Shown here piece by piece: positions 1 to 63,263 of a DNA stretch of 64,000 nt. A program made the translations under genes and the position numbers. Source of the stretch: Dipteris shenzhenensis (lineage: Eukaryota). A model generated the notes under the pieces. That model did not search any database and had not been told where the DNA came from. It saw only the letters and a program-made list of their open reading frames with translations. Location: assembly GCA_047967505.1 (NCBI GenBank), contig CM106538.1, one strand, 5' to 3'. The number at the start of each line of letters is the position of its first letter. The first letter of the stretch is position 1.

Positions 1-3000
1 TTAGTACACCAGTCGCAAAACTGATGTCCGGTCGTTTGTTGCAAAGGTACAAGCCTTCTGTACTTTGCTTCATCCATCAATGGTGATGAATCCTCGTTTG
101 AGAGCTTCGCGTCAACCTCCATAGGGGTACTAACTGTCTTGCACTCAGCCATGCCAAATGCCTTTAGTATCTCTCCAGAGCATACTTCAACTGTGAAATG
201 AAGATCTATTTCGGCTCCTACCAAACTTCAATCCCCAAACAGAAATGCATCAGTCCGAGGTCTATCATTTCAAACTCTCTTCCTAGCAAATGCTTTGTCT
301 GCGAGATCTTCTCTTCCCGATTCCTTGTTATGACAAGGTTGTCCACATAAAGGACCACGATCATACACCTGCCTCCTCTAAAGATATACAAGTTTGCATC
401 TGATGGGCTCCTCCTGAACCATTTTGCAGAAAGTAGGCATCAATTTGCTGGTACCACGCTCGTGGGGCTTGTTTTAGCCCGTAAAGTGCCTTCTTCAGTT
501 GCAAACTTTACCTTCTAAACCGGGAATCTCAAAACCTGGTGGTTGTTCCACGTATACCTCCTCCTTGAGATCTCCATTCAGAAAGGCAGATTTCACATCC
601 ATCTGAAACACGGGCCAACTTCCCTGGGTAGCTAAAGCCAAAACACTGTGAATTGTGGTTAGTTGAGCTGTGGGAGCAAAAGTATCTTGATAATCAAAAC
701 CATGTGCCTGTGCAAATCCTTTTGCCATGAGCCAAGACTTGTACTTATCCAACGTGCTGTCGAACTTGTACTTGGTCTTGTACACCCACTTGCTTCCAAT
801 TACCTTGCGTTTTGGTGGTCGATCCACAAGGTCCCAAGTGTTGTTCTTCATTATGGAGCCATACTCTGACTGCATAGCCTCCATCCACCTATCATCGCCC
901 TGTGCCTCTTCAAGACACTTGGGTTCATCAGCACGGATCACTTCTGTCATTAAAGCATAGTTGACCAAGTGTTCCTGCACCCTTCTTTACTCCTCTAATC
1001 TCTTGGACCAACGGTGTTCGGATGGTTTCTCCTCAATGGCTGGAGGTTCTGTGCCATCTAAAAGCTACTTTACCCACTTCGGGAATAGCCGTTGCTGTTG
1101 TGGTTCTACAGGCACTTCTTCATCTTCTTTGTCTTGAATCCTCCCAAGCACCGTTGGGAGAGTTCGGTTTGCTGTTGGTGGCGGTAGTGGATGGATATCC
1201 TACTGGTCTTGGTTGTCTTGGAAGGAAGCATCCTCCTCCAATTGATGCGGTTGTTTTGAGAAGACCACATCACGACTTACAATTACCTTCTTGGTAACAG
1301 GGTTATAGAGACGGTAACCCTTCGCCTCTTCACTGTAGCCCAAGAAAATATAGTTCCGGCTCTTTGGTTCCCATTTGGTCTTGGTAGCATCAGGGACGTA
1401 CAAAACAGTCACGTCCAAAAACTCTGAAATGTGCAACTGAAAGTTTCTTACCAGAAAAGGTCTGCAGTGGAGTCGTCCCATTCATAGCCTTCATGTAGCT
1501 ATGATTAAGAATGTAAACTACAGTGTTACATGCTTCAGCCCAAAAAGTCTTTGGCAAATCTTTCCCTTTCATCATACTCTAGCCCATTTCGCAGATGACA
1601 CGCATCTTGCGTTCTGCTACTCCATTTTGCTGTGATGTATGTGGCAGGGGTTTCTGCCTCTTGATTTCGTGACTTTTGCAGTAACTTTTGAATTCAGTTG
1701 ATGTGAACTCTCCACCTCTGTCTGATCTTAACTTCTTCACCTTCCTCCCCGTTTCTTTCTCGACCATTACATGCCATTCCTTGAACCTACTAAAAGCCTC
1801 GTCTTTAGTCTTTAGGAAGTATATCCATATCCTTTTACTGTAGTCGTTGATCAGCGTCATGAAGTAGTAGGAACCACCCAAAGCTTCCATCTCCATATTT
1901 CTATAGAGGTCTGTGTGAACGAGCTCTAGAGGAGCCTTTGCCCTGTTGGCCTCTTTAGGAAAGGACTACCGATGCTGCTTGCCCATCATGCAAGCTTCAC
2001 ATACATCGGGCAGATTTGAAATTTCTAGTAGGTTCGCAATCATTCCACTTTTATGCATCTCCTTCAAAGAACTAAGGTTTAGATGACCAAACCTCTCATG
2101 CCATAGCTTAGTGTTCTTCACATCTGCACGAGTACTAAAAGCTGAGAGTTCGTAAATGTTGCTGCACCGTGTACCTTTACCAACGACCTTCCCTTGAAGA
2201 TCCAAGATCTATGCACTGGTCATTCTTATCGAATTGAACTTTGAGGTCCCGATCCGTGATCACAGAAACAGAGAGGGTTACCAGAGTCCTTATCCTTACC
2301 TTTCTTTGATCCGGTCCAAAAAGCTGAATCTTCTCTAGTCCTCGTCTTTTGACGCATCTCCTCCTCCAGAAGCATCGCGCTGAAATCCTCAAAGTTGAGG
2401 GGTGGATTTCTGTTATGCGTATTCAGCGCTGTAACAAGACCGTCATACTTTGGTGGGAGAATCTGTATGCACCTTCGTGCTAGATTCTCATTGGTGATGG
2501 TGATCTGATCACGCAGATTCTTCACCCTGGTGATGAACTTCTCTGTCGCTTCAGACTCAGACAACTTCTCGTTCGCGAGTTGAGTCTCTAGATTTTGAAT
2601 TTGTGTATGATTCGTGGTCTCGTACTGATTTTTCAAGACCGTCCATGCCTCCTCCGCTGTGGTGACATGTTGAATTAACGCCATGATGGAATCACTAACA
2701 CTATAGATAATAGAACACAGCGCATCTACATTTCTTCTTGTCCATGCAAGAATCTCATCTGTAGTTGGTACTATCTGTTGTCCTGCATTGGTTGGATCCG
2801 GTCTCACAATCGGCCTCACATCCACCCTAGTAGCAGTGTCCCAAAGCTCCTATGCGCTTAGGATGGTCTTCATCTTGAACTTCCAAAGTGGATAGTTATA
2901 GCCGTCCAACTTTTCGCTTTCACCAAACGGTGAGATTCGCAGTCTTGTGGGCTGGGCCATCTCTCACAATCTGCTTGCAAACAGAAACACACTACCAAAT

Positions 3001-3018
3001 CTTCTTGCTAGAGTCCAA

Positions 3019-3030
3019 GCTCTGATACCA
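3019..3030 (-). promoter_or_regulatory. Primer-binding site, initiator tRNA-Met
   Basis: TGGTATCAGAGC on the minus strand directly after the LTR-terminal CA. Confidence 0.9.
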
Positions 3031-3750
3031 TGTAAGAAAATAATACAACATCTGTGCTCAACAGATAACAAGATCTTGTATGCAAGAGAGAAAACAAGAT
3101 AGTATGAAGAATCAAAACTTTGATTACTATAGAACTGATACAATAGATGGCGCTACCTCCCAACCATGCGCTCCTGTGAAAGAAGCTTCGATGGTGCACT
3201 AGAAACAGTAGAAGACGGAGGCTGGATGCTAAGGAATCAGGGTTGCTGTAGCCAGTGATGAAATGGGCTTCACAAGCTTGCTCTTATATAGCCACCAGTC
3301 GTAGTCGGTTAGGCTCAATTGGGTGGCCAACCCAATTCACCCAAAACGGTCGACTGGGAGTCGAAATAGGCCACTGACCATACGATAGAACCAATGTGCA
3401 AAATAGAGCAACTGACCTATGGTCACCGTTCAGCCCAGAGCCATCCGAGATCATCTGAGGCTCCAAACCGTAACCCGAGAGTAGGCTACCGTAGAAAATA
3501 CTCCATCTACCCTCAGTGCAGTCAGTCAAGGGATGCCTTCCAGCACTTGCATGTAGCCTAGTTAGTGGTGTGCCAACTCTATCTGAAGCCGTCCAGCCAT
3601 CAGGCCACACATGGCCCCCATTTAGTGTCCAAACTAGGACCTACCAGATAACCGAGCTACTCAAATGCCTTCTCCTCATATGGGGGGCCTACAAGTAGAG
3701 TTAGATGGTTCCCGCATAGTTACATGAGAGTGGAGCATTGATATCTAACA
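3031..3750 (-). repeat. 5' LTR of the copia element (about 720 bp)
   Basis: Minus strand reads TGTTAG...TTACA and is immediately followed by the PBS. TATATAAG is present. The 3' half recurs inverted at 18245-18599. Confidence 0.8.
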
Positions 3751-4356
3751 AAACCTTCAGCTACACATTTCAGAGTTTTTGGATGTGACTTTTGTGCATG
3801 TCCCTGATGCTAACAGGACCAAATGGGAACCGAAGAGCTGGAAGTGTATTTTCTTGGGCTACAGTGAAGACGCAAAGGGTTACCATCTATATAATCCTGT
3901 TACCAAGAAGGTAATAGTAAGTCGCAATGTGGTTTTCTTAGAATAGCTGCATCAATTGGAGGATGCTTCCTTCCCAGACAACCAGGACCAGGATATCCAT
4001 CTAGTATAACCACCAATAGCAGACCGAACTCCCCCAATGGTGCTTGGGAGGATTCAAGATAAAGAAGAGGAAGAAGAGCCTACAAAATCACAACGGCAAT
4101 GACTATTCCCGAAGTGGGTAAAGCAGCTTTTGGACGGTAGAGAACCTCCAGCCATTGAGGAGGAACCATTCGAACACCACCAGTCCAAGAGATTAGAGGA
4201 GAAAAGAAGGGCGCAGGAACACTTGGTCAACTACACTTTGATGATAGAGGTGATCCGTGCTGAAGAACCCAAGTGTCTTGAAGAAGCACAAGGTGATGAT
4301 AGGTGGATGGAGGCTATGCTGTCGGAGTATGGCCCCATAATGAAGAACAACACTTG

Positions 4357-4359
<3 letters not shown>
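3751..4359 (+). mobile_element. Fragment of the same copia family, opposite orientation (integrase C-terminus to RT start)
   Basis: Near-identical reverse complement of about 832-1446 (QEHLVNY.LM.EVIRA.EPKCLEEAQGDDRWMEAM). Ends abruptly at a (CT)n tract. Confidence 0.9.
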
Positions 4360-4400
<41 letters not shown>

Positions 4401-40600: not shown

Positions 40601-43600
40601 GCTCACGTACTCGCAGAGCTTCAAATGAAGGGCCTTCCCACTCGCATCAAATGCGGCTGATGGTTCTCATGGTCTTCCTCCATTGGTTCGTCTTGGCCAC
40701 ATGAAAGGGAATGGCACACCATATGAACAATCGGGTGAGCTCCCTAGTTGCCTCTGCCATTGCCTGCTTTTGAAACCCCGATTGGATGTTGGCCCTTCGT
40801 ACAGAATTTCTAGGTAGTGGAGGAGTGGCTCGTGACACATCCTCTGGCAAAGGAGTCCTCTTTGCATGCATAGCCGACATAAAGGAATAGCCACTCTATG
40901 ACTCAGTATCTCTGCTCCTCTTTGTTGCCTCCGGTGCTTGACTTGAACTACCTTCCTCCTCGTCAGCTGGCTCCATAGAACTTGAATCTTTGGGAACACC
41001 CAAACGCTTTCGCCTCCATTCTTCAAGGCTCTCCTTAACATTGTTATGCTCTCGTCGAGTTAACATGACCTCAGAAGGGTCAGTCGACATTTTCCTTTAA
41101 AGGATCAATATTTGTATTATATTTGTTTGGGCTTCATGTAAATGATAAAAAGGGAATAAAGGTCAAGGTCCTTGGTGTGGGTGACATGGCACTAGACTAG
41201 GTGGATCTAAAGCTAAGGGACTTTAATGCATTAAATGTGCCTAGGGGCAAATGTTTTAAAGATATCCCAAGAGAGGGGTAAATAATGCATTAAGGAAGGA
41301 CCCTACATTTATGACATGTGGCATAATAGATTCATCTAGGGAGTTTTGGGGCTCATTGGGAATAAGCAAGCATGAGCTTTTATGTAATCAGACCATCTGG
41401 AAGCTCGCAACCAACGAGGTTGGTTGGGAGGAGAAACCAAGTGCCCGTTCCCGTGATTTGACGACAAGCAGGAAGAAATCAGATTAGACTGTAAAATTTG
41501 GTATCAGAGCGCAGAATATCTAGGTAGCGTGGATGAACGAGTTGCATACGAAGGGGTAACAAGCGGAATTGCTAGGAGTTGGAAATCTAGCCCTTCAGAT
41601 TTGCGTCACGTATTAGGAGCAGTGCAACGAGCGTGGAGGTTATAGATCATTGAGCTGTCAAGACGGAACTATAGGAGCCTAGAAGTATAGGCTGGTTTGA
41701 GGCGATCCTTTAACGTTTTCGATGCTGGTAAGGGTCTGACGTTATGACCGTATAGCATGTTCGTGATTATAAGGCAGGTCATAAATGCATGTGGGAGTGG
41801 CTTACGGGAACTAGTTGACCTCTTCATGCAGCAAAGATATACCAGGGGGCTTTCGACTCTTTATTCCCTCTATTTTATTTGGTTAAAATTCTAAAGTTTT
41901 GAGGTGTGTGAGTTGGATTGGGAACAAATTTATGCCTTTGGATTTAAGGGCTTGAGGTTCTTAGATTGCAGGAGTTTCCCTAGTATAGGGAAAAGCGGGT
42001 TTGGTTACAGTGTGATATATGTTTTGTCAGCTGTAAAGTTGGAAGTTGGACTTTCGATTTGTAATTACAGTTTCAAGTTTTTTTAAATAAACACCCATTG
42101 ACCTGAATGGAAATAAAAGAAGAAGCTTCCAGGATGGATCCCGTAGAGTCGGGAGTCCGGCCGACCCCGCAGGTATCGCGCCCAGCAGGCCATACATTGT
42201 CTGACAGAATTGCAATGTTAGAGGATGCCTTGCAACAGATTTTAGCGCAGCAGTTACAAACAAATGTGGGGCAGTCTGAACTCAGAAAAATGCTGCACAG
42301 TATGTCTGCCAGACCATCTCGTGAGGAGAAAGGTAAATCTCCGATGGAACCGGAGTCCAGTCTTCGTACGGTCGAGCCTAGGAAGACTAAGGTGCCTAAT
42401 ATTGCCAATTATAGGCCAAAAAAGTATTCTGGTCGGATGTCTGACCGTAGTTCCGATATCTTTGACACCTGGTTACACAAATGGGACGAGGCATTCGCCA
42501 TTTGTGAAATCAGGAATGATATCAAGAAAATCCGCAAGGCCACCCGTATGTTTAATGAGGCAGCGGATAGGTGGTGGATAAAACAGCAGAAAACACTTCC
42601 TACCTCCTGACGAAGCATCCCGAGCTTGGGATTAGTATCGAAACCTTCGTCAGAGAAATTTATCAGTGGCAGAATACACTGATAAGTTTAGAGAAAGTGT
42701 AATGAAGGTTGATGAACCCCTACCTCAGTCAATCCAAGTAAAAGATTTTATCTTTGAATTGAATGATCGGATAAAGATAAAAGTTCGGGCTAAGTATGCG
42801 AACACGCTAGATGAAGCAATTGCCATAGCCCTGAACTATGAAGATGCAAAAGGGAACAGACCAAGTGGGTTTGTGCAGGTTGGGACTCAGTATGGGTACC
42901 CGAAGAAAACTAGGTTTAAGAAGAAGTGGATTAGCAAAGGGGGTGCCTCACAGTCTAGTGGTCAAGCCAAGCAGGCGAAACCAGTTGAGACTCCTAAATC
43001 AAGTACCACCATTGGAATGAAAAGGAAAGTAACACCAATGGCAGCCCGGGCTTGGTCGAAGTCCTCTTTGAACCCAGAGCAAAGGGAAAAAGCGAGGAGA
43101 GAAGGCTTGTGTTTCAGTTGCCTTCAGCCTCATCAGTGGAAAGATTGTCCACGGAACAAAGATCGTCGGATGGCTGAGATGATGGTCTCAGAATGTGACG
43201 TGGAAATGGAGGAAAGTCCTAGAGCAGAACAAATGCAGATTCAGCTAGCGGGATCTTCTCAAAGGTCAGTACCTTTTTTGTTATGTGTATCTATTGCTAA
43301 GTTAGTAACTAGTGCACCTAATAATATCCTGTCAAAGCCCGCAGCAACGGGGTATACAACCTTTAATGATACGGAGTTGATTAAGATGAAAGGACAAGTA
43401 GCTAATCATCAGGTCATTGTGTTGTTTGACTCAGCGTCAACGTACAATGTAATTAACTCCAAGCTCGTAAAGAGGCTGAAACTAAAGACTAGCCCATCTG
43501 ACTATGCATATACAGTTTAGGATGGCAGATGGAAGTTCAACTGAAGTATGGGACCAAAGGGTTACCCAGTTGGAGCTTCGAATTCAGGACTATGCTGAGA

Positions 43601-45511
43601 AGCTTGATTTTGAAATGACTAAGCTTGCTCATGCAGACATAGCCCTGGGTAAGGCTTAGCATTGTAGGAAGAATCCAGCCATAGATTGGAAAAAGCACAT
43701 TTATCAATTCAAGATGAATGATGTGCTATATGTCTTACGAGGTAAAAGGAATATACCTCAAGGACCGTTGGTTTCCGTGATGGAAATTCAAAAAGCTCAA
43801 GAAGAGTTTTTGTTTCTTTGTACATCATCGGTAGAGCCGATTGATGATTCTTCCACTAGCACTGATGTTGCTCAAAATGGAGAGATGGCCAAGCTGGCTG
43901 ATCAAATAACAGAGGAGTTCTCTGATTGTTTTAGGGATGAGTTACCTTATGGGTTACCTCCAAAGCGAAATGTTCAGCATAAGATTGAACTAATTTCGTG
44001 GGCAGAACCTATAAATAGACCTCCCTATAGGTTGAGTTTTACTGAAGAGGCGGAGGTTTGAAGACAACTAGAAGAATACCTCAAGTTGGGGCAGATTCAA
44101 CCAAGTTTCTCACCTTTTGCTTCGCCAGTGATATTAAAGAAGAAGAAAGATGATACTTTTCGCCTCTATATAGATTACAGAGCATTGAATAATATCACTA
44201 TTAAGCACAGGTATCCGATGGCTCGGATCGATGATTTGCTAGATGCATTACATGGGGCCGTAATTTTCAATAAGATAGATCTTAAGTGTGGCTACCATCA
44301 GATCCGTATTAGAGCCGAGAATGTGCATAAAACCGCTTTTAGAAACAGGTTTGGACATTATGAGTTTTTGGTAATGCCCTTTGGACTTACCAATGCTCCA
44401 GCTACATTCGTCATGCTTATGAACGATTTACTACGTTCGTATATCGAAAACTTTGTAGTACACTTTATTGACAATATTCTGGTATTCAGTAAGAGTATTA
44501 CTGAGCATTATGAACACTTAAGAATAGTGTTCAATACTTTGAGGAAAGCCAGTCTTTATGTAAATAAAAAGAAAACTATACTGTGTATGGTAAGACTTAA
44601 ATATTTAGGATTCATAATTACTCCTGAAGGGGTAGAAATGGATCCAAAGAAAGTGGCTGCGATACTGACTTGGCCAATCCCTCAGAGTTTGATCACTTTG
44701 CAATCATTCTTGGGATTTGTCCAATTTTATCGAAGGCATATCAAAGGATATTCCGAAATAGTATTGCCATTGACTGATCTAACCCGTTTTTCCTTGAAAC
44801 CGATGCAAGTGGCATTGCGGTAGGAGCAGTTCTCCTCCAAGAGGGAAGGCCAGTAGCCTTTGAAAGCAAGAAGCTTTCTCCCTCTCAACGAAATTGGCCA
44901 ACTCATGAATTAGAGTTGTATGTTGTTGTCCATGCTTTGAAAACATGGAGACATTATTTGTATAGATCAGAGTTTTATGTGGATGTTGATCATGATACTC
45001 TGAAACATTTTTGTAAACAACCTGACTTGAGAGGCCGCCAAGCTAGGTGGGCAGAACTCATGCAGGAGTTTAATTTGACGATCCGGTACCGAAGAGGGAA
45101 GGATAATAAAGTTGCTGATGTGTTGTCACGCATTATGCATAACATGAGTTTCACGGTGTTAGAGAGTGCTCTAATGACCGAAATTAGAGAAACTCAAAAG
45201 GTGGACGAGTTCGTCCAGAGTCTTTGGCCTAAGGCTCATGTGTTAAAACCCGGGGAAAAGGATGACCTGGCATCCAGAAAAGGCCAAACTTATGCAAGAT
45301 ATGCCATGAGGGATGGTATGTTGAAAAGAAATGGCAAGGTAGTAGTACCTATATATATATATATACCTTTGTAAGACTAAAATAAGTCCAATCATACAAA
45401 TTTAGAATTTTTTGTTGTTCTAAAGATCAAAAATCTACAAAGAAAATAAAAGAGAAAATGAAAGAGAAGAAAAAAGCGGTAAACAAAAACTTTTATGAAA
45501 AGCAAAAGGAA

Positions 45512-45634
45512 GACATACTTAGCAAGCAAAGCAACACTTATGTCGTCATCAGTGCCCAAGCATAAGCAGCTATACTAGGTTTCTAAAGACCCGCGGAGTC
45601 TCTTGGGCAAACCCAGTGCTTGCTAAAATACGTC
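45512..45634 (-). ncRNA. Predicted structured RNA in the PLE 3' UTR (multi-stem with kissing/pseudoknot pairing, hammerhead-like core motifs)
   Basis: Hand-folded 17-bp closing stem, two internal hairpins and an 8-bp cross-pairing. Conserved in copy 2 (about 59354-59477). Function untested. Confidence 0.55.
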
Positions 45635-45873
45635 AAATAAACAAAAGAGAATGAAAACAAGAAATAAAGAAGAAACGAAGCAGGTGACTTAAGCAAAAAT
45701 AAACAAGCAAGTCAAGAAACAAAAACTTCCAAAAAACTAGAATCTCTCTCTCTCTCTCTCTCTCTTATTTAAAACATAAAAAGTTAAAAGGCACTTTACA
45801 CTTATGTCTCGTTTCTGCAAAGAGGCAAAAATACATTTCTAACTTAGAAAGCACAAGTATACTCAAACAAACT

Positions 45874-48081
45874 CTAAAAGAAAAACGGGCTATTCAGCTC
45901 CCCGCTTTTTGTTTTCAGCTTAAGTTCAATCATTCTAAACAAACCTAAGGCCGAAACACCATAGATAAAAGACTTCATATCTAAGAATGTGCGAACTTTT
46001 TTCATTATTTTCCTTGGATTATACCTCTTGTGTAATAGTAAAGTGATCAAATTACTACAATGAGTGATAAAAGACTCCTTAGTTGTACAAACGCGGGAAA
46101 ATCTATGGAATTGGGAAGAAATGACTCCATATTTTGCCAAATCAGAAATGTTTGAGTCAATGTGAGGCATTTTTATAATGTGTAAACCACTATATTCAGG
46201 TTGTTCACGTTTATCGTATATATCAACCTCTAATCCTATGGTAGATTGAGAAAGTCTAAGATCTAAGAAAACACAAGAATCCCCTTTTGAAGTGCAGTTC
46301 AGTTCACAAGAGTCACGAGGATAGATTCCTTCTCCAAAAGCTCTAGCGTCTTTGTACATAAAGTCTTGAAAGTTAGGAACATCTGGTACAAATAAATCAT
46401 CTATAAAACGCCTAACTTGACTAAGCTTATGTAAAATGATAGGGCAGGTATTGATAGAAATAAGACGTTGCATAAACTCAAATTCATAAGTGAAAAGATA
46501 AAAGTTTGCTAAAAAGACGGCACAATTAGTGCCCATGGGGATTCCTATAACTTGTTGAAACAAAGAATCACCTATTGTGACGTAAAGATTATCTAAAAGA
46601 AAATCTATCCAAGAGCAAACATCTTCTACACTTACTACCTTTGTGTATCTTTTCTTTTTAGAACCTATGTCATGATCTTTATTTTTTAGCCACAAAAAGT
46701 CAAAGCATAAGGCTGTTTTCTCAACTTTTAGCACTTTGCATCTATCTTTGTCAAATCTCAGCTTGAAAACTTCAGCCACTAGCTTTTTAATTCTAAACTT
46801 CAGGTCTTCCAGCTCAATCTTTGTGTAAAGCGTCGTAAAATCATAGGTTTGAAGGAGAATAGGAGACTCTTTTTCCTGAATGCTTCGAGAGGAATTAAAA
46901 AATTTTACAACAGGAATCACTCCTACAGAGTCATTTAAAATCCAGCTTGAGTTCGAGGGGACATCTGCCTCTTTTAATAAGTCCCTCCAAAGTTCATGGA
47001 CACTAGGCAACATGGCTTTGAAGCAGTAGCTTAGCCATTTAGAGATATTCGTCAAAGTAGTCTCACAAGCAGCTGCAATAAATCTTGGCTTTTTTGGAGT
47101 TTTGTGAAACTTCCAAGCAGCACAAAGAAAAGGTATGCTTGGATTGCAAACAAACCCAGAAGACTTGCAAAAACTCTGATGTTTTGAGATCAAATCTTTT
47201 TGAGAAACTAAGGCGGGGGCGTAAGTTTTGGCAGACGAGTTCACTTCTCTCAAAAGACATTCTAAGTAAAACTTTTTGCAAATAAAAACAAAGTTATTGG
47301 AACATTTGTCCACATAAGAAATGACAAAATTCCTATGGAATTTTCGAAGAAGAGTTTCATCTTCTTTCGAAAGAAGGTTACTTTTCTTTGAGCAAATAAC
47401 CGAAGGGACTTCTTCTAGTTTCAAAGCAACTTTCTTCAAAATCTTCCCCTTCCATTCTGATAAGATATTTTTAACTCCTAAACATTCTTCTAATTGCAAA
47501 ACAAACTTTGAGATTCCCTTATCGATAGCTTTTAAAAGGCAAGACTCTTTAAAAGAGTACAATCGAAATTTTGTGCCTTTCATGAAAAGGTCTCTTAGGT
47601 TACTAGAAAGCAAAATTGAGGTATCAGTTGTGACTACATGTCCTAAATCAGCATCAATAAAGCTTTGGAATCTCTTACTTTTACAACAACAAGGTTTTTT
47701 AAGGATAGAAGATTTTGAATGCTCTGAAAGCCTTTTACCTATCTCTCCATAGTTGAAAGCTTTTTGTCCTAAAGTTTTTACATACTTCCAAGCTACTACT
47801 GAATGCTTCCAAATTCTTCTCACAAAATGAGGGAGAGAATCCATTACTTCAGGAGACTTCAAAATGGAGTTTAAGCCTATCTTGTCAAGTGAGGGAGAAG
47901 TAAAAATACAAATCAAGAGTTCCTTATTTAGATAGACTTCTTTGCTTTGAAATGAAGCTTTTACTTTTAAGAAGCGATCCAACGAAGTTTTAAGTTGTAT
48001 GTAATGGAGCTTATTTAGATTCAAATCCTCAAAAGAGAAGTTTTCCAAGGTATTGAAGTTTAAAAAGAAGAAGTTTTCCAA
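45874..48081 (-). CDS. Penelope-like reverse transcriptase, uninterrupted 735 codons, N-terminally incomplete
   Basis: CxC linker PCCC..GHVVTTD..KGTKFR, DKCSNNFVFICK, KFHK..KPRFIA, YDFTTLYT, GIPMGTNCA, RFIDD, FLDL, IYDKR, YGVISSQFHRF. No C-terminal GIY-YIG. The frame is open through the 5' junction (track start is TTG). Confidence 0.88.
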   Translation of the reverse strand: MENFFFLNFNTLENFSFEDLNLNKLHYIQLKTSLDRFLKVKASFQSKEVYLNKELLICIFTSPSLDKIGLNSILKSPEVMDSLPHFVRRIWKHSVVAWKYVKTLGQKAFNYGEIGKRLSEHSKSSILKKPCCCKSKRFQSFIDADLGHVVTTDTSILLSSNLRDLFMKGTKFRLYSFKESCLLKAIDKGISKFVLQLEECLGVKNILSEWKGKILKKVALKLEEVPSVICSKKSNLLSKEDETLLRKFHRNFVISYVDKCSNNFVFICKKFYLECLLREVNSSAKTYAPALVSQKDLISKHQSFCKSSGFVCNPSIPFLCAAWKFHKTPKKPRFIAAACETTLTNISKWLSYCFKAMLPSVHELWRDLLKEADVPSNSSWILNDSVGVIPVVKFFNSSRSIQEKESPILLQTYDFTTLYTKIELEDLKFRIKKLVAEVFKLRFDKDRCKVLKVEKTALCFDFLWLKNKDHDIGSKKKRYTKVVSVEDVCSWIDFLLDNLYVTIGDSLFQQVIGIPMGTNCAVFLANFYLFTYEFEFMQRLISINTCPIILHKLSQVRRFIDDLFVPDVPNFQDFMYKDARAFGEGIYPRDSCELNCTSKGDSCVFLDLRLSQSTIGLEVDIYDKREQPEYSGLHIIKMPHIDSNISDLAKYGVISSQFHRFSRVCTTKESFITHCSNLITLLLHKRYNPRKIMKKVRTFLDMKSFIYGVSALGLFRMIELKLKTKSGELNSPFFF

Positions 48082-51000
48082 GGTGTATTGTAGTAGTACC
48101 TAATTAGAATGATCTCAGGCAGCGAGTCATTCGACAATGCCATGATAGCCCATGTGCGGGACATCCAAGAGTCGAGAAGACATATGATCTCGTAAAGCGA
48201 GATTTCTTTTGGCCAAAGATGAAAAAGCATATTCATGAATATGTGACACGTTGTTTTTCGTGTCAGGTAAGTAAGGCAGAACGGGTGAAGCCACTCGGAC
48301 TTTTACAGCCCCTGGAGATACCACTAAGTAAGTGGGAGAGCATTTCCATGGACTTTATTGTAAGGCTGCCTACGACACAAGGTGGATATGATTCTATCCT
48401 TGTGGTGGTTGATCGTCTTACCAAGATGGCTCACTTCATTCCAACTAGAGAGTCTGTTAGTGCCCCGCAAGTGGCGGATTTGTTTATTAGACGTATATTT
48501 CATTTGCATGGATTACCCAAATCCATAGTGTCAGACAGAGATGTCAAATTTACCGGTCATTTTTGGACTGCGGTATTTGAAACACTAAGGACTGAGTTAA
48601 GAATGAGTAGTGGGGATCATCCTGAAACGGATGGTCAGACGGAAAGAATCAACCAAATTTTAGAGGATATGCTGAGAGCATATGCGTCATTGAGGCAACA
48701 TACATGGGACAAGTGGTTGCCATTGTTAGAGTTTGCCTACAATGATAGAAAACATTCCTCTACAGGGTTCAGTCCGTTTGAGCTAAACTATGGTTATAGA
48801 CCAGCGAATCCAACTATACTTGGAATACCTCAGAAAGTGCCTAGTGCCACGAACTTTGTGGTTCAGATGCGGGAGATGCTAGCACTTGCGAGAGCTAACA
48901 TCCGCCAAGCTATGGATAGAGCCAAGGCGTATGCGGATGAAAATCGATCCGCTAGAGAATTTAAGGAAGGAGAAAAAGTTTTTCTCAAAGTTCCTTCGCA
49001 CTCTAAGTCTTTGACTGCAGGAGAGTGTGCTAAGTTATCACCTCGATATTGTGGGCCATGGTTAATTCTAAAAAGAATGGGAAAGGTGGCCTATAAATTA
49101 GAATTGCCACAGGGTTGTAAGGTGCACCCAGTGTTTCATGTTTCTCGTTTAAAGAAATTTTTGCATACAGGTGACTCACTAATCGAAGGTATTGTTTTAT
49201 TTCAGGAGATAGAGGATAATGCAAGACGCAAACCAACAGGAATCCTGGACCGAGGAACAATGCAAGTGCGCAATCGGAAGATACCCACGGTGTTGGTTGC
49301 ATGGCATGGTCTACCTCTATCAGAAGCTACCTGGAAATCCATATACCAGTTACGGTGAGTGTTCCCAAACTTTATCATCGAGGACGTTGATGCTGAAGAG
49401 GGAAGGAATGTTACGCTCTAGTCGAGGTAACATGACCTCAAAAGGGTCAGTCGACATTTTCCTTTAAAGGATCAATATTTGTATTATATTTGTTTGGGCT
49501 TCATGTAAATGATCAAAAAGGAATAAAGGTCAAGGTCCTTGGTGTGGGTGACATGGCACTAGACTAGGTGGATCTAAGGCTAAGGGACTTTAATGCATTG
49601 AATGTGCCTAGGGGCAAATGTTTTAAAAATATCCCAAGAGGGGTAAATTATGCATTAAGGAAGGATCCTACATTTATGACATGTGGCATACTAGATTCAT
49701 CTAGGGAGTTTTGGGGCTCGTTGGGAATAAGCAAGCATGAGCTTTTACGTAATCAGACCATCTGGAAGCTCGCAACCAACGAGGTTGGCTGGGAGGAGAA
49801 ACCAAGTGCCCGTGCCCGTGATTTGACGACAAGCAGGAAGAAATCAGATTAGACTGTAAAAAACATCTTGAGGAACATAGGGGCATGGCCCTACGTCTTT
49901 GCTTGGCACATGGGCAAGATGGTCCTTCACACGGGTGACACCCTCCGTTTTCTCCATTCCATAGAATTTGCATTTCCACTTCTTAGAACCACCAGACCCC
50001 TCATATCTCCCCAATTTCTCTACATGTTTCGAAAATGCATCCGGAGTCCAAGCCATGCTGAGGACTCAGGAGAGCAAGGAGAGGAGGGAAAGGGCTGAGG
50101 AGAACAAGGAGGAGAGGAGAGGCTGAGAGGAGATGGGCTGAGAGGAGAGGGCTGCGAGGGTGAGAGGGGGGGGAGAGGAGAGGCTGAGAGGGCTGAGACT
50201 CGAGAGGGTGAGAGGGCTGAGAGGGTGAGCTGAGAGGAGAGGTGAGGGAGCACGCAGGAGCAGGAAATGATGCCAGCAAAAACGATGCGGAAGCAGAAAA
50301 TTTGGGGCAAAAACTGCCCCCCCGGAAACGCCATTTCCGTTTTTGGAAACGGCATGGAAACACCGTTCCATTTCGGGGTCAGAAAAACGGCATTTCTGGA
50401 AACTATGTTCCCAAACTGTCCACGCCTTCTGGAACAGCTCCTTCCAAGGTTCTCCTTCTTCCTGTAGCAATAAGCAGCAACCTCCTGCTACCCATGCGCT
50501 CCATTGGTCCGAGGATTTGAACTTGTGCTTTGATACCATGTCAGAGTGCAACGGAATTTGTGTGAATGCAAAGAGAGCAGAATCGTGACTATAGAAAGAG
50601 AAGATTACTGCACAAGAATTGCAAGAGATGCTTCATGTTACTGCTAAGAAAATCTCCAAAAGAAATAAGAGTTGTACCCCCCCCCCCCCAAAGGTCTTTA
50701 TTGCAATATTGTACAACTGGCTCTTGAAAGAGCATAGAACTGAGTACAATTCGGAATGAATCTGGTTGATCTGGGGCATTTTTTTTTAAGACTTAGCTAG
50801 GGCCTTCTTTCTAAAAGTTAGTTTTACATAAAAGCCAAGCTTTCAGGCTTTTCTTCCTAAATTGGAGGCTTTAGGTGGCCTTTTTCGTCTTGTGGGCCCT
50901 CTTTTAAAGAGGTGCCCCCTTGTCCGTCCTTAAGAGCCTTGTGGGACCTGCTTTTTGTGCTTTTCTCCCCAATCTTGGGTCCTTTTTGCACTCTCTTGGG

Positions 51001-52526: not shown

Positions 52527-54362
52527 TGTAACACCTCCCAGTGCACATGAAAGTCAATTTAAACAAAGGACACTACGGGGAAGTTCTTAAGGAGCATTGA
52601 GTTCCAGATACCTGACAGGGACCAGTCGGCCAACTTGCTATTTCTGGCCAGTGGCCATTAAATGAAATAGCCAAGGTATTTGCACTAACCAGTCTTCCCC
52701 CTAGACATATGAAGAGGCATTAAGGCTACTCATGACTTGGGTGATGCATCAGAGCTCTTTAATTTACTCTAATATATTCTTAGTAAATAGAGTAAGGAAA
52801 TCAAGTTGGAGCATTTTGAAGATCAGGATACCATGACTAAGAGCTCCACTAGGCAAACATTTTATTCCAAAGAGGAGCAATTTCAAAATACCTTTTCTTT
52901 GAAATCAAAGGTTGGCAATCTCAAAGGCCCATGGGACATTGAAAGAACCTTACAAGAGAGGAGATTGGGGGAACTGCAACACAAGCCAAAAATTCGCCCA
53001 CACATGGGACAAGTGTTTGGCACCCTACCTCCACCTCAACTCACCTGCTCTCCTATAAAAGAACCCCCCCACAGCCCATCCTCTCAACACAGATCCTACA
53101 TCCCATTCCCGCTGCTGCACCTTGCTGCTCCCCTCTGCTTCCTCTTCATGCCCTGCTGGACACCTTCCACAACCCTGCTGCTGCAAATCATGGATTTCTG
53201 TGAAAATCAAGCTCTTTCTACACTGCTGCACACTGTCCAACACTCTGAAATCCAGCAGCCCATCAGATCGCAATCTAACTTGGAGGACAAGCTCTCTGCA
53301 CGCTGCTGCATATTGTCCAACGCTGCTCTGCAATCCAGCAGCCCATCAGATCGCAATCTACCTTGGAGGACAAGCCCTCTCTAAGCTGCTAGGTCTAGAC
53401 CACCGCAGAGAGTCAGCCAGTCTTGAAGTCCAGACGTGTGTCCCATACCACATGCCCTTTCCTCTAGCTGCTGCTCCCAGGATAAGCACATCAACGTCCA
53501 GAGGAAAGCACTCCTTCGACCCCTGATAATGAGGCCCTGGCCTATACTTAAAGACCAGCCTTCATGCCCCGGCTATCCTTAGCTGTGAGCCTATACTTTA
53601 GCATGCATGCGTAAAGTAAATTACTTTACCATGTGGCCATCCTTTGCCAAGTAAAGCTCAACCATGCCTTGCCTTTAGCCGGCTAGCTCTATTCACAGGG
53701 TCTAGACCTCACCTTTGCTAGCTCTAGTCTCAACCCTAGGTTAATTCCTAACCGTGGGTTTTAGTCAGGCCTAGGCTTTGATAAGCCTATACCCTAGTTA
53801 GTCCAGTCGTGGATGTAACATCCTTCTTCTCTTAAAATAAGATTTATGCTGACATAAATCGAGGTAGGAGAGATAAATCTGTGATTCTTAGACTATACTT
53901 CTCAATACGTCGAGCCACCCCAAAGCCTAAGGTCTAGACCACTGCAGAGAGCCAGCCAGCCTCGAAGTCCAGACATGCGTCTCATACCACATGCCCTTTC
54001 CTCTAGCTGCTGCTCCCAAGCCAGTAGGTCAATGTCCAGAGGATAGCACTCCTCCAACCCCTGACAATGATGCCCTAGCCTGTACTTATAGATCAGGCCC
54101 AGGCTATCTTTAGCTGTGAGCCTATACTTTAGCATGCATGTGTAAAGTAACTTTACTTTGTGGCCACCCTTTGCCAACTATAGCTCAGCCATGCCTTGCC
54201 TTCTCTATCCACAGGATCTAGACCTCACTTTTGCTAGCTTTGGTCTCAACCCTAGGTTATTCCTAGCTCCAGGTTAGACCACACTCTAACCTTAAATCTA
54301 ATTCTAGATCCCAGGTCAGGCCTAGGCTTTGATAAGGCTGTACCCTAGTCGTGGACATAACA
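52527..54362 (-). mobile_element. Pair of related LTR-like repeats (about 53390-53820 and 53928-54362) separated by a PPT-bearing spacer
   Basis: Both begin TGTTA on the minus strand; AAGAGAAGAAGGA precedes the left copy. Left boundary (52527) is tentative and no TSD was found. Confidence 0.6.
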
Positions 54363-57121: not shown

Positions 57122-59586
57122 TTGTGAAAGAGAGGAGGAGAGGAGTGGATCTCTGCCGTTCGTCGTCCTGCCAGCCTCCATACAGCCCTTTGCTGATTCT
57201 GTACAGGCCCACCTGCAGCTCCCAATGGCGGATTGTCCTTACGAGAAGACATTTCAGAAAGACAGATCAGTTCCAAATAAAAAACAAAAGCAGGTTATCG
57301 GTCAGGATGACCCCCTCCATGCCTCTACAGAGGCTCAGTTAGTCTATGCGTTGATGCATGAGGCCTTTGAAGACACTCAAAAGAGTTGGAAAGATCCGGT
57401 TCCCACCACGGGCATCATGGTTGAGGTGAATGACATTTTTGAAGGAATATGCCAAGCATGCCATCATTAATTCTTTTCCATGACGTATGCCTACTACTGC
57501 ATATGTTGGTAACTAGTTGACTAGAACCCTCGGTGGTTGCTATGTCAAAAAAGTTCATTATGCAGCAAGGGGCTTTTTTACAGTGATCATGGCAAAGAGC
57601 ACAGGCAGATTTTATTAGAGCACTCTCCTCTTTTCTATGGGCAGCAGATGGTTCATGTGTTGCCCTGGTCTCCTACCAGAGATTATCAGGCGTTGATCCA
57701 ACACAGATGCCCTATCTAGGTGGAAGTTGTGGACTATCCTCAATGTCTGGCCTCTCTTTTGCCAAAAATTACAGCCTCTTTTGCAAAGTGGTTTGTCCAC
57801 CACGGCCTAATGGCAATTCAAATAGATTTTGTGTTTTGTGGGACACATATAATCCAACCCCAGACTCTTATTCGGTTACAGTGAATAATGTTTCGATGGG
57901 CAGTGCCTTCTATAAACTGAAATGGAGTCTCTTTGCAGGTGCTTGCTTTGAATGCAAGAAGTTCGGGCATATGGCTTCGCAATGCCCTTCACGTAGTCCC
58001 AAAATGCAAGACTTCTACTGCCTCCTCTTTGATGAAGTTTAAGGGGGTGAAATAGTTTTTTGATGTCCAGGACAAAGGGAAAGCACCGGTTGCTTCCAAT
58101 GGTGATGCTCCTCCTTCTCTGCCTTCGGCCTCTCATCCTCAAGCAAAGGAAAAAACTTTGAATGAACCCCAAGAAAAGTCATCTCACCTAGGAGACCTTT
58201 GCCCTCCCGGACTTGGAATGGTGCTTCCTCTCAGGGAAAAACACCGGCTGAAAATTCTGTTATTGGTTTGACTTGGACTGCGGTGACTGCCAATCGTACC
58301 CTCTTTCTAGAAGAGGAAGTTACTGCCTTATTGTCTTCTCCTCAGGCTGAGTTTTCTTCTCAAGGCCGAGGCCCGAATACTGAGGTGGAAATGCAGACAT
58401 AGAAGGCATTTTTGCTGTTGTACATACCTGTCCTATATCTATAAATATGCTTGATCATCTCAAATGTGTCACTTTGAATGTACAGGGTTTTGTGTGATGG
58501 TTGAAAATGGAAACTGGTCTGGCTGTATATAAGCCAATTGCAGTCTGATATAGTGGCTTTACAAGAGCATAATCAGCATATGTATGCTGGTAAATCTAGA
58601 CATTTTGCTAGTTATGACATTTTCTATGCTGGAAAGCACTCTTTCTCTGGGTAGCCCTTTTGGTTAAGCATGATCTTCAGCCTATTGTGGCCTTCAATGA
58701 TCACCATGGTCAATGGATGATCATACAATGCCTTGTTTAAGGTGACGTCTTTGAATTTGCATCAGTATATGCTTCTCAATCTTCCGGGAATCGAGCTTTG
58801 ATTTGGGATGCTATGCACAAATATCCCTGGCAGCATTATGCTTTTATCTGTGGTGATCTCAATAATGCCCCACAACTGGGAGATAATACCTCAGGCCACA
58901 CTCACATGTTAGCTTTTGAAAAGCAAGCATGCTCTGATTTTTTGCTTCAGTTGTGTCTGGTTGATCTCTGGAAGGAATTGCAGCCCATGCTTCCGAGATA
59001 TACCTTTTAGCATAATGCTCAATCTTTATATCAGGCACGCTTGGACAGATGGTATCGGATTGATTCATAGCATTCTAAGATTGTGAAGCATGCCAAATAC
59101 ACTTGTCAAGAGTTTGACTGAACTCAGTCATCTTCGGCCTGTCTTCAGAAGAAAGCATGCTATTATGTCATACTAAATTCTGTCTCCAATCGAATGATCA
59201 AAGAAATATACCTTTGTAAGACTAGAATAAGTCCAATCATACAAATTTAGAATTTTTGTTGTTCTAAAGATCAAAAATCTACAAAGAAAATAAAAGAGAA
59301 AATGAAAGAGAAGAAAAAGAGGTAAACAATAACTTTTATGAAAAACAAAAGGAAGACATACTTAGCAAGCAAAGCAACACTTATGTCGTCATCAGTGCCC
59401 AAGCATAAGCAGCTATACTGGGTTTCTAAAGACCCGTGGAGTCTCTTGGGCAAACCCAGTGCTTACTAAAATACGTCAAATAAACAAAAGAGAATGAAAA
59501 CAAGAAATAAAGAAGAAACGAAGCAGGTGACTTAAGCAAAAATAAACAAGCAAGTCAAGAAACAAAAACTTCCAAAAAACTAGAAA

Positions 59587-59623
<37 letters not shown>

Positions 59624-62600
59624 TCTCTTATTTAAAACATGAAAAGCTAAATGGCCCTTTACACTTATGTCTCGTTTCTTCTACAAAGAGGCAAAAATAC
59701 ATTTCTAACTTAGAAAGCACAAGTATACTCAAACAAACTCTCTTTTGAAACTAAAAGAAAAACGGGCTATTCAGCGCCCCGCTTTTTGTTTTCAGCTTAT
59801 GTTCAATCATTCTAAACAAACCTAAGGCCGAAACACCATAGATAAAAGACTTCATATCTAAAAATGTGTGAACTTTTTTCATTATTTTCCTTGGATTATA
59901 TCTCTTTTGTAATAGTAAAGTGATCAAATTACTACATTGAGTGATAAAAGACTCCTTAGTTGTACAAAGGCGGGAAAATCTATGGAATTGGGAAGAAATG
60001 ACTCCATATTTTGCCAAATCAGAAATGTTTGAGTCAATGTGAGGCATTTTTATAATGTGTAAACCACTATATTCAAGTTGTTCACGTTTATCGTATATAT
60101 CAACCTCTAATCCTATGGTAGATTGAGAAAGTCTAAGATCTAAGAAAACACAAGAATCCCCTCTTGAAGTGCAGTTCAGTTCACAAGAATGATCAAAGAA
60201 AGCTTGCTAAATGGGAGACCCGATCTTGGCAAAGGGCTTTTTTCGATAAAGGTTGCTCTTCCAAGCAATTCTTTACAAGTTTGCATTACAAAAGACAAGC
60301 TGCCAATATTTGTCGGATCCGGATGCCTCATGGTTCTTGGTCCTCATCTCGCTCAAAGCTTGCTGCTTTTTGTGTGCAGCACTTTTCATCTCATTTTGGG
60401 CATGTGGACATTCTTTCTCCTCAGGTTGTGTCTGCCAGCCAGCTTCTTTTGCAACATGTCCATCCCATTCTCTCTTATGCTCAGACTTTGGAATTGGAAA
60501 TTCCTTTCAAATTCCTTTCACTGAAAGAGAATTGTCAAATGCTGTTCAATCCTGTGGCAGACGGAAATCTCCAAGATGGGATGGTCTCACTGTTGAATTT
60601 TTTCTTGCCTTCTGGGATATCCTCAAGCCTTCTTTGCTGCAAATGGTTAATTCAGCCTGGGAAAATCAGCAAAGGCCTGTGTCATGGAAAAAGGACTTGT
60701 TAAGCTCCTTCCAAAAAAGCAGCTATGTGATTCGCTCACTGATTTGAGACCAATAACGCTCATGCCAGTCATTTACAAAATCATAGCCAAAATGGTTGTT
60801 GATCGTATTAAAGGTTATTTGCATGATGGGTTGCATCCTTCGCAATATGGCTTCGTTCTCCATAGGCATATCACAAATAATATTGCCAATGCTTATATTG
60901 GGATTGAATATGCCAAATACACCCAACAGGATGTTCTACTCTTGCAGGTGGATATTACAAAAGCCATTGATACAGTTCAATGGGAATTCATCTCGCAAAC
61001 AATGCAAGCTTTGGGGTTTGGAACAAAAATGCAGTAGGTTCTTTACTGGCTTTACAGCTTGCATTCTTTCAAGAGATCTCTCTGATGAGTGCACTCTTCG
61101 TTGTTCGGTCCGTCAGGGATGTCCCCTTAGTGCTTTACCTTAGTGCTTTATTGTATGCCATTGCTACCCATCCTATGCTGCAATATATTGATCATCTCAT
61201 GGCTACAGGCTCCCTCCATGGTTTGGAATTAGATGCACATCGTAGCATAGTTGCTCAAGCCTATGCCGATGATTCTTTCTTTACCCCGAAGAATACGCAG
61301 AATGATCTTTTTGCTTTGATGCAGGCTCTCTGTGTTTATGGTTTGGCAGCTGGTCTTCATGTAAATTTTCAAAAGTCTAAGCTGCTCCCATTGCATTCTA
61401 AAGACTGGCATAGTCTTTTGTGGCCCGAGAAAATCATATCACCTACTCAGATTGTTCGTCATCTTGGTTACCCTTTGGGGTGGGGTCTCACTCGTCGTCA
61501 ACAAACTGATTGGGTGATGGTCAAGCTTCGGAAAAAGCTAGAGTATTGGAAATTGCCTTTGCATGTTCGGCTTCGGATAGTGCAATCCATCCTTGTGGCT
61601 TATATTCAATTTTATTTGCCTTTGATCATGTTCACCAAGGCAGATCTTGCTTCTTTCATGTCTGTCATTATGGAAATCTTCTGTCATTCCAAACATGGCA
61701 GAAAAAGTCTCAGGCTGCTTTTAGTGCATCAACTTTGTTCTCCTAAGATGCATAGTGGTTTGAACATCACGAATATCCACGTGCATATCCTTGCTCACAG
61801 GGGAAAAATGTTGCTGTAATTTCTGCAAGGTGATCAACCTTGGGCTCTTATGATTAGATCTCTGGTCACACTATCAGTGTTTCTGCCTTTGGTCACTGGC
61901 AAATCAATCTGCGATTTCTTATTTGGTTGCATCGATGGCACTTTGCCTGGCTGCCCTTTGGTCTCCAATTTGCTTCTTGATTGGAAGCACGTCCTCTCTC
62001 ATCTGGAATGGCATGGTCGACAATCTTTGCTGGGTAATTCTTTGCGAGCTGAAAGCATTTACTGGTTGACAGTTTTTCAGTCTCCACTGGCTTTATAAAA
62101 ACCTCGTTGTTCCTCCTTTGTTTCTTTTAAGGGCATCACTTCTGTTGCTAATGTTATTCATGATGATGGCTCTGTGCTACCTTTTCTCTGGCAGCTACAC
62201 GGTATGGCTTGGGCTCTCATTATCGTGCTTTGTGGCAACAAATTGCTTATATGCTTTCGCCTTTTGTTCTGATTCCTCCTTTGGAACTTTAGAACAGGTT
62301 GGAGGATTGAACTTTGACTTCCCCAGGGTCCTCTTCTCGCCCTTTGAGGCTATCTCAGATTACGATGCCTGTATTGTATAAAATCCTTTTGCCGCAACCT
62401 TGGGTTTCAGAAAAAGACAATTCTATTTGGCGAATGCATCGCCCATCCAAGTGGTGGAGAAAGAGATTATAGCAACTTTGGGCCTACAAAGATCCTCTTC
62501 AGCAACAGGTTTTCTTCTGTCGAGTGCTTCTTGGCATTTTTCCATCTCGATAGATGTTGGCTCATAGACACATTGCTCCTACTCATTGCCACGGATGTTT

Positions 62601-63087: not shown

Positions 63088-63263
63088 TACATACATATGT
63101 ATGTGTATATGTATAAGCACTCCACTACTGAATTCAATGTTGAATTCTCAGTTTTGGGAGATAGGTTAGATTTACTACATACATATGTATGTGTATATGT
63201 ATAAGCACTCCACTGCTGAATTCAATGTTGAATTCTCAGTTTTGGGAGATAGGTTAGATTTAC
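63088..63263. repeat. 88-bp tandem duplication
   Basis: Two near-identical units, each containing the near-palindrome gaattcaatgttgaattc. Confidence 0.92.

Follow-up and report, generated by a model that had tools for sequence, protein, structure and literature searches.

A 5′-truncated Chlamys-type Penelope-like element in a fern genome and a predicted SGC-order hammerhead in its 3′ untranslated region

The stretch of DNA analysed here (the window) comprises 64,000 nucleotides of contig CM106538.1 of the fern Dipteris shenzhenensis (GenBank assembly GCA_047967505.1) and contains two 5′-truncated copies of a Penelope-like element (PLE), which together with their associated features are listed in Table 1. 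Copy 1 interrupts a Gypsy long terminal repeat (LTR) element between RNase H and integrase, and copy 2 is located in a decayed sequence resembling a long interspersed nuclear element (a call made by eye, Pfam being silent). The limits assigned to copy 1 in the original prediction, which was made from the letters of the window alone, fall exactly between the two members of a perfect 13-bp duplication, and the claim of two independent internal insertions was borne out, each insertion having its own duplication (13 and 15 bp). The empty Gypsy site was found in public contigs from four runs, with position 45338 joined to 48090, and in one contig exactly 13 letters fitted either side. The two copies were 97–98% identical in ungapped blocks, and no third copy was found in the 64-kb window. 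The Gypsy host is structurally whole (41042-49861), with LTRs 96.0% alike over 455 nt (16 mismatches), a tRNA-Met-type primer site at about 41499-41510, a 5-bp target duplication and broken gag-pol frames, and its relatives without the PLE insert are numerous in public contigs. The description of every other element as decayed is thus true of the reading frames but not of the structure of this host.

Table 1. Positions of the two element copies, their parts and the interrupted host element in the window.
Feature	Position	Strand	Basis or remark
Host Gypsy LTR element	41042..49861	plus	LTRs 41042-41496 and 49409-49861; interrupted by copy 1
Target-site duplication of copy 1, 3′ side, 13 bp	45339..45351	.	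Identical to 5′ side
Copy 1, 5′-truncated Chlamys-type PLE, 2738 bp	45352..48089	minus	Limits given by the 13-bp duplication; empty-site joints in four runs
(TA)7 tail of copy 1	45352..45365	minus	Inside the duplications
3′ untranslated region of copy 1, about 510 nt	45366..45873	minus	
Candidate type-SGC hammerhead	45536..45617	minus	Descriptor search and shuffles; pair table against sister family; definition from PMC10085705
Block S	45617-45602		Stem III strand, GUU triplet, stem I strand; predicted cut between 45610 and 45609; then linker hairpin
Block G	45586-45574	minus	GAAA at 45583-45580
Block C	45560-45543	minus	CUGAUGA at 45552-45546
Helix joining stems I and II	45567-45561 with 45542-45536	minus	
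True reading frame, 724 codons and stop	45874..48048	minus	Linker end, CxC, GxKF, DK, reverse transcriptase with finger insertion, thumb
Reverse transcriptase motifs A, B and C	46396..46845	minus	A 46845-46837, B 46545-46531, C 46407-46396
CxC motif (C137, C139)	47683..47691	minus	Near-invariant in a 77-sequence alignment
20-nt re-copy of 48037-48054 at the 5′ junction of copy 1	48070..48089	minus	Alignment with P0110 and P0035
Target-site duplication of copy 1, 5′ side, 13 bp	48090..48102	.	Identical to 3′ side
Copy 2, 5′-truncated, 980 bp	59207..60186	minus	Same hammerhead blocks (H17 at 59453); (TA)2 tail
Target-site duplication of copy 2, 15 bp	59192-59206 / 60187-60201		

Both copies share one terminal sequence, to which (TA)7 is appended in copy 1 and (TA)2 in copy 2. 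Since the TA run lies inside the target duplication, it is a tail belonging to the insert, and a (TA)n microsatellite as target was rejected for both window copies. In other copies, represented in public contigs, the flank change was located at 45357-45363. Both window copies were inserted in coding sequence of other elements, and the bias for (CA)n or (C)n repeats that is typical of many, not all, Chlamys families (PMC8557442; this and the other publications are cited from the portions available) was not seen. A telomeric reading, similar to that of the endonuclease (EN)-lacking Athena and Coprina elements, was rejected as well, the insertions being internal with duplications and the flanks non-telomeric. 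Target-site duplications of variable length (13 and 15 bp in the window), absence of LTRs and 5′ truncation are as expected for a PLE. Partial tandems with pseudo-LTRs were absent from both window copies.

The frame originally described as 735 uninterrupted codons is real as a long frame, and from stop to stop it even extends over 741 codons (45874-48099, minus strand), but only 724 of these (48048-45877) belong to the element. The first 17 codons are a junction artefact composed of flank, the 20-nt re-copy (48070-48089) and a stretch in which 2 nt present in the relatives are missing, which puts the upstream codons out of frame; one public contig has 2 extra letters over 47628-48069 relative to copy 1. 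The motifs of a PLE reverse transcriptase (RT), the CxC upstream of it and the lack of a C-terminal EN were all confirmed: the three catalytic aspartates of motifs A, B and C, GxKF (G175) and DK are intact, and the stop comes right after the RT thumb. DK is followed by C (DKC), and motifs A and B are 96 amino acids apart owing to a long finger insertion, this distance being about 58 in Penelope, 81 in Naiad-Amil and 96 in Chlamys-1_cAtm as counted by eye from Fig. S1 of PMC8557442. CxC, GxKF, DK and the large A–B insertion are the marks given in that paper for the Naiad/Chlamys clade.

An AlphaFold model of the window protein (predicted local distance difference test score 91.9) was compared with known structures by Foldseek, and the top 17 matches were all telomerase RTs (E 1e-9 to 7e-5). 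In the modelled fold, the RT is nearest to telomerase RT, a hallmark of PLEs; a PDB search by sequence gave no telomerase RT match. In a profile comparison, the N-terminus matched the GIY-YIG domain of I-TevI (E 1e-7). No match was obtained in a Pfam search of the element protein, and for this reason the family has probably been missed in fern repeat annotation.

An exhaustive protein search retrieved 6200 relatives, the best full-length ones being 30–34% identical and carrying an N-terminal GIY-YIG without the CCHH cysteines. The closest named PLE protein, at 63%, was from Ceratopteris, which points to a fern as the likely host. A FastTree phylogeny was calculated from the 131 of 158 proteins that covered most of the RT region, and an IQ-TREE phylogeny from 51 rows (49 chosen from the 131, together with L029 and L056 from the metagenome family described below); in both, the labels Naiad and Chlamys stand for the EN type of unnamed proteins. 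FastTree united all 25 CCHH-type rows in one clade (0.998) with the window protein outside. IQ-TREE recovered the window family and L029/L056 as sisters (100/100) and the 16 CCHH-type (Naiad) rows as a separate clade (100/99), and all 14 EN-bearing rows of the 26-row set holding the window family were without the CCHH cysteine pair. The grouping of the RT with non-CCHH proteins supports a Chlamys-type element outside the Naiads, by which the Naiad/Chlamys assignment of the original prediction was narrowed. Both trees are midpoint-rooted and include no canonical PLE, telomerase reverse transcriptase (TERT) or published Chlamys/PLE-X sequence, which limits their weight.

When metagenome contigs were scanned by means of the N-terminal alignment, 74 loci of one multi-copy family emerged, with about 40–55% protein identity; they include several cases of the same insertion in overlapping assemblies. 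A GIY-YIG match was found upstream of the window-homologous part in 21 of the 74 loci; in L006, EN, linker, CxC and GTKF lie within one frame, and the EN of L006 and L029 is devoid of the CCHH cysteine pair (EN features were tested on this sister family only). The element is about 4.3 kb long and has a similar short TA terminus. Head-to-tail partial tandems with one shared junction occurred at three independent sites, and the L058 insertion lies within an intron-containing chromatin-remodeller gene. Duplications (11–16 bp) of at least 11 bp were detected in only 3 of 13 windows tested, which is a point against the reading given below. In L009, a short re-copied stretch (828-845) separates the target duplication from the 5′ end and resembles the 20-nt re-copy of copy 1.

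The sequence shows copy 1 to be younger than the Gypsy element around it (16 LTR mismatches); its duplication is perfect and its 724 codons are free of stops. Over the 432 coding bases (144 codons) compared between copies 1 and 2, 10 differences were counted, eight replacement and two silent; this ratio gives no sign of selection, and both may be dead copies. The data support the view that the copies are recent dead-on-arrival inserts. The perfect duplication, the open frame and the likeness of the copies support the proposal of recent, as distinct from present, activity. With the last 376 nt, 43–171 contigs per run were obtained from four runs under three organism labels and from three studies. 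Many distinct 3′ flanks, one fixed 3′ end and far more depth at the 3′ than at the 5′ end indicate a dispersed, mostly truncated family; in this sense its suggested abundance was supported, although contig counts do not equal copy number.

The 3′ untranslated region (UTR) of both window copies contains the core letters CUGANGA, GAAA and UH of a hammerhead in the order S-G-C, as defined for type-SGC RNAs in PMC10085705; this feature is absent from the original prediction. A descriptor covering all six block orders (stem I of 5 bp, stem III of 4 bp plus A-U, stem II not required) matched twice in the window (128 kb on both strands), both matches being SGC and located in the UTRs of the two copies. 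Among 5000 dinucleotide shuffles of the UTR, 5 yielded SGC and 36 any order. Canonical type I, II and III readings of the UTR were rejected, as the six-order descriptor yields only SGC. In the sister-family loci, 13 of the 23 descriptor matches were SGC at the homologous place and 10 were scattered; put otherwise, 13 of 14 SGC matches in the loci were at the homologous place. The UTRs of the two families share low-complexity sequence only, and CUGAUGA, GAAAC and GUH are unchanged between them.

Block S was left unaligned between the families by MAFFT, and pairs were therefore tabulated by anchoring on the core motifs. Twenty-one pairs were comparable (stem III, 7; stem I, 5; stem II, 2; joining helix, 7), of which 7 had changed on both sides, 3–4 on one side and none was broken. 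In stems I and III and the joining helix taken together, 6 of 19 pairs had changed on both sides and none was broken, in two lineages only. The stem III G-U of copy 1 is G-C in most other fern copies in public contigs. On these grounds the presence of a non-circularly permuted, SGC-order hammerhead in the 3′ UTR is a well-supported prediction. In copy 1 a 9-bp outer stem (45520-45528 with 45617-45625) encloses the candidate; in copy 2 this stem has a single mismatch. In L029 (7330-7543) and homologous loci, the stretch from the hammerhead to the 3′ end includes more conserved hairpins and a second CUGARGA-like heptamer. At one shared site of the sister family (L041 71-475, L044 4098-4503, L057/L058 4387-4798), the upstream pseudo-LTR unit stems from a more diverged subfamily; its hammerhead is mismatched, and that of the downstream unit is intact in L041, L057 and L058.

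Several observations weigh against this prediction. The descriptor was composed after the motif had been seen and does not require stem II, and the 10 of 23 matches that are scattered over 472 kb of loci are attributable to chance. The covariation comes from two lineages, and the register of the joining helix was chosen by the analyst. Stem II consists of only 2 bp, one of which has changed on both sides, and is preceded by a C-A or A-A mismatch; in PMC10085705 all four stems were found to be needed. The fern triplet GUU|U is able to pair with the GAAA adenines. Predicted folds did not contain the core, the method used being confined to nested structures and unable to predict pseudoknots, and no hammerhead was found by Rfam search. 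The core and all stems are kept in 9 of 21 distinct sister copies, 11 having defects and one being without block S, and 6 nt belonging to stem I and the joining helix are deleted from one deep contig (run X4). No such motif was seen in two published Chlamys consensus ends (meVir and cAtm; PMC8557442), which were read by eye in the portions available. Two contigs stop at 45608-45609, beside the predicted bond, which is a weak hint only, as they do so amid many other truncation points.

Whether the motif still cuts is the point at which the most serious alternative arises, namely that it is a non-cutting remnant of a hammerhead that serves as a structured signal for RT binding or packaging, the identification of the element being unaffected. 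We regard this as doubtful, though by a modest measure. No inserted copy is interrupted where the cut is predicted, and the 2-bp stem II, the possible mispairing of GUU|U with GAAA and the absence of the motif from the meVir and cAtm ends would all be understandable in a remnant. A binding site, in turn, need not retain catalytic letters, and precisely CUGAUGA, GAAAC and GUH are unchanged between families with otherwise unalignable UTRs; moreover, the canonical PLE hammerheads in File S2 of PMC8557442 include the C-A mismatch present here and U at the cut site.

The other alternatives concern the EN. The predicted loss of an N-terminal GIY-YIG by 5′ truncation was corroborated as to the truncation and by the EN of the sister family (L006 and L029), and the proposed inspection of full-length N-termini gave an in-frame GIY-YIG without CCHH in that family, but no EN was recovered from the fern family itself by protein, viral-contig or genome-contig searches, the available proteins ending just short of it; this is a further point against an EN-bearing fern element. 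The viral-contig and genome-contig searches gave no relative of the element, and the search for proteins extending P0110 upstream returned P0110 itself only. It could therefore be supposed that the fern family lost its EN, like PLE-X of Selaginella and Chara, and was moved by the nuclease of another element or at existing breaks, EN loss within Chlamys having been described (PMC8557442). This appears unlikely: the first residue of the fern-type fragment P0110 (73% identity with the window protein) already aligns to L006, directly behind the EN, and P0110 and P0035 retain the Chlamys linker up to the EN border, whereas PLE-X N-termini look unrelated by eye. The in-frame EN of the sister family and the 13–15 bp duplications in unique DNA also fit an own nickase. 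Arrival in ferns of an animal-type Naiad by horizontal transfer would account for the 3′ (TA)n, typical of Naiads, and for the mostly Naiad-type full-length proteins (25–29%) returned by a word-indexed search. It is very improbable, since the TA run is tail and not target, DK is followed by C and not A, the size of the finger insertion is that of Chlamys, the window protein falls outside the CCHH clade in both trees, and the better hits (30–55%) are all non-CCHH.

The reading that we hold with considerable confidence is that copy 1 is a 5′-truncated insertion of a multi-copy Chlamys-type PLE, made probably by target-primed reverse transcription, a mechanism that draws partly on PMC8557442, and that its 3′ UTR carries the predicted SGC hammerhead. 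A full-length master element (about 4.3 kb in the sister family) would make one EN-CxC-RT protein, whose GIY-YIG would nick non-repetitive DNA; the RT would prime at the TA end of the element, slip and add a few TA units, and the second strand would be cut 11–16 nt from the first nick. Synthesis would usually stop early, sometimes with a short template jump, to which the 20-nt re-copy of copy 1 is likely due at the end of reverse transcription. By such an early stop, copy 1 would have lost promoter and EN at birth and been dead on arrival.

The most likely role of the hammerhead would be to process tandem (pseudo-LTR–body–pseudo-LTR) transcripts, as proposed for canonical PLE hammerheads. The inserts show no break at the predicted cut site and extend past it by 248 nt (window) or 328 nt (L029), so that the template was either uncut there or re-ligated, as in a circle primed internally. 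The circle model is put forward as a hypothesis; internal initiation of reverse transcription has been shown for another PLE (PMC11167929). We propose more tentatively, as an idea somewhat short of an even chance, that an EN-bearing Chlamys lineage resides, and has recently moved, in ferns and in one or more other plant groups, with a working, knotted SGC hammerhead of minimal stem II. From tandem transcripts this hammerhead would release RNAs of unit length, perhaps circular, on which priming starts internally at the TA end. If this is true, the pseudo-LTRs would be explained, and Naiad/Chlamys elements would have rewired the hammerhead and not lost it.

Elsewhere in the window, exons of a sugar transporter (STP family) were found on the minus strand at 13401-14617, the best named identity being 66% to Adiantum, with at most 58% to non-ferns, which likewise places the host near ferns. 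Copia-type fragments at 495-4362 include the inverted pairs 829-1201 / 3990-4362 and 1234-1446 / 3751-3963, which are 87–88% complementary and perhaps reflect a nested or inverted insertion. Local repeats comprise an array with a 73/79-nt period at 17663-18202, a perfect 90-bp tandem duplication (27483-27662), repeats of 81–89 nt at 53243-54018 and an 88-bp tandem duplication of 99% identity (63088-63263).

The Chlamys clade has been known since 2021, and the portions of PMC8557442 available mention among land plants only the EN-lacking PLE-X of spike mosses and a few moss BlastP hits. Neither Chlamys in ferns nor an SGC hammerhead in a retroelement is reported in the open-access literature searched (including passages of bioRxiv 10.64898/2026.07.22.740005 and PMC10288648), and in this literature the family is thus undescribed for ferns, though its clade is not. 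With Chlamys elements of minimal organisation, such as Chlamys-1_meVir and Chlamys-1_cAtm, the window family shares the CxC linker, GxKF, DK without a fixed third residue, the long finger insertion, the lack of a C-terminal EN and frequent 5′ truncation, and the RT motifs of Chlamys-1_meVir look very close to those of the window by eye. The sister family is alike in its N-terminal GIY-YIG without CCHH, length of about 4.3 kb and partial tandems. The window family differs from Chlamys as described in PMC8557442 by its fern host, clean 11–16 bp duplications in unique DNA instead of microsatellite targets, the (TA)n tail and the predicted permuted hammerhead, canonical hammerheads having been reported absent from most Chlamys there; the permuted order would explain that report. 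Naiads belong to the same N-terminal-EN clade and have CxC, a finger insertion, terminal TA and remarks of "HHR core / half core" (HHR, hammerhead ribozyme) in File S1, but they are animal elements with DKA and CCHH plus CX2-5CxxC fingers, and the window family lies outside their clade. PLE-X of Selaginella and Chara is likewise a Chlamys-related PLE of land plants with CxC and a hammerhead; it differs in the lack of EN, another N-terminal extension, a 28S ribosomal DNA target in spike mosses and hammerheads of circular order (PMC8557442). PAc, the Poseidon element of Anolis (PMC11167929), is a PLE with GIY-YIG and a telomerase-like RT and provides the internal initiation that a circular or tandem template would need here; its EN is C-terminal and its hammerhead canonical.

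Type-SGC hammerheads (HRIMA-1 and variants; PMC10085705) have the same S-G-C order and intact CUGAUGA, GAAA and UH; they also agree in stems I and III and in the helix by which the block-C sides of stems I and II are joined. The published linker between S and G is about 3 nt long, whereas here it holds a hairpin, stem II has 2 bp behind a mismatch and the context is a plant retroelement. According to the portions of PMC10085705 available, no SGC RNA was found in genomes of known organisms; the prediction would give this topology, published only from environmental RNA, a place in a cellular genome and a plausible function there. Craig et al. 2021 (PMC8557442) left open by what means Naiad/Chlamys elements spread although they lack the hammerhead of other PLEs, and a permuted hammerhead, preserved through compensatory changes in two plant families, offers an answer. 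The clean duplications and the tail, in addition, provide rare unambiguous insertion junctions for this clade.

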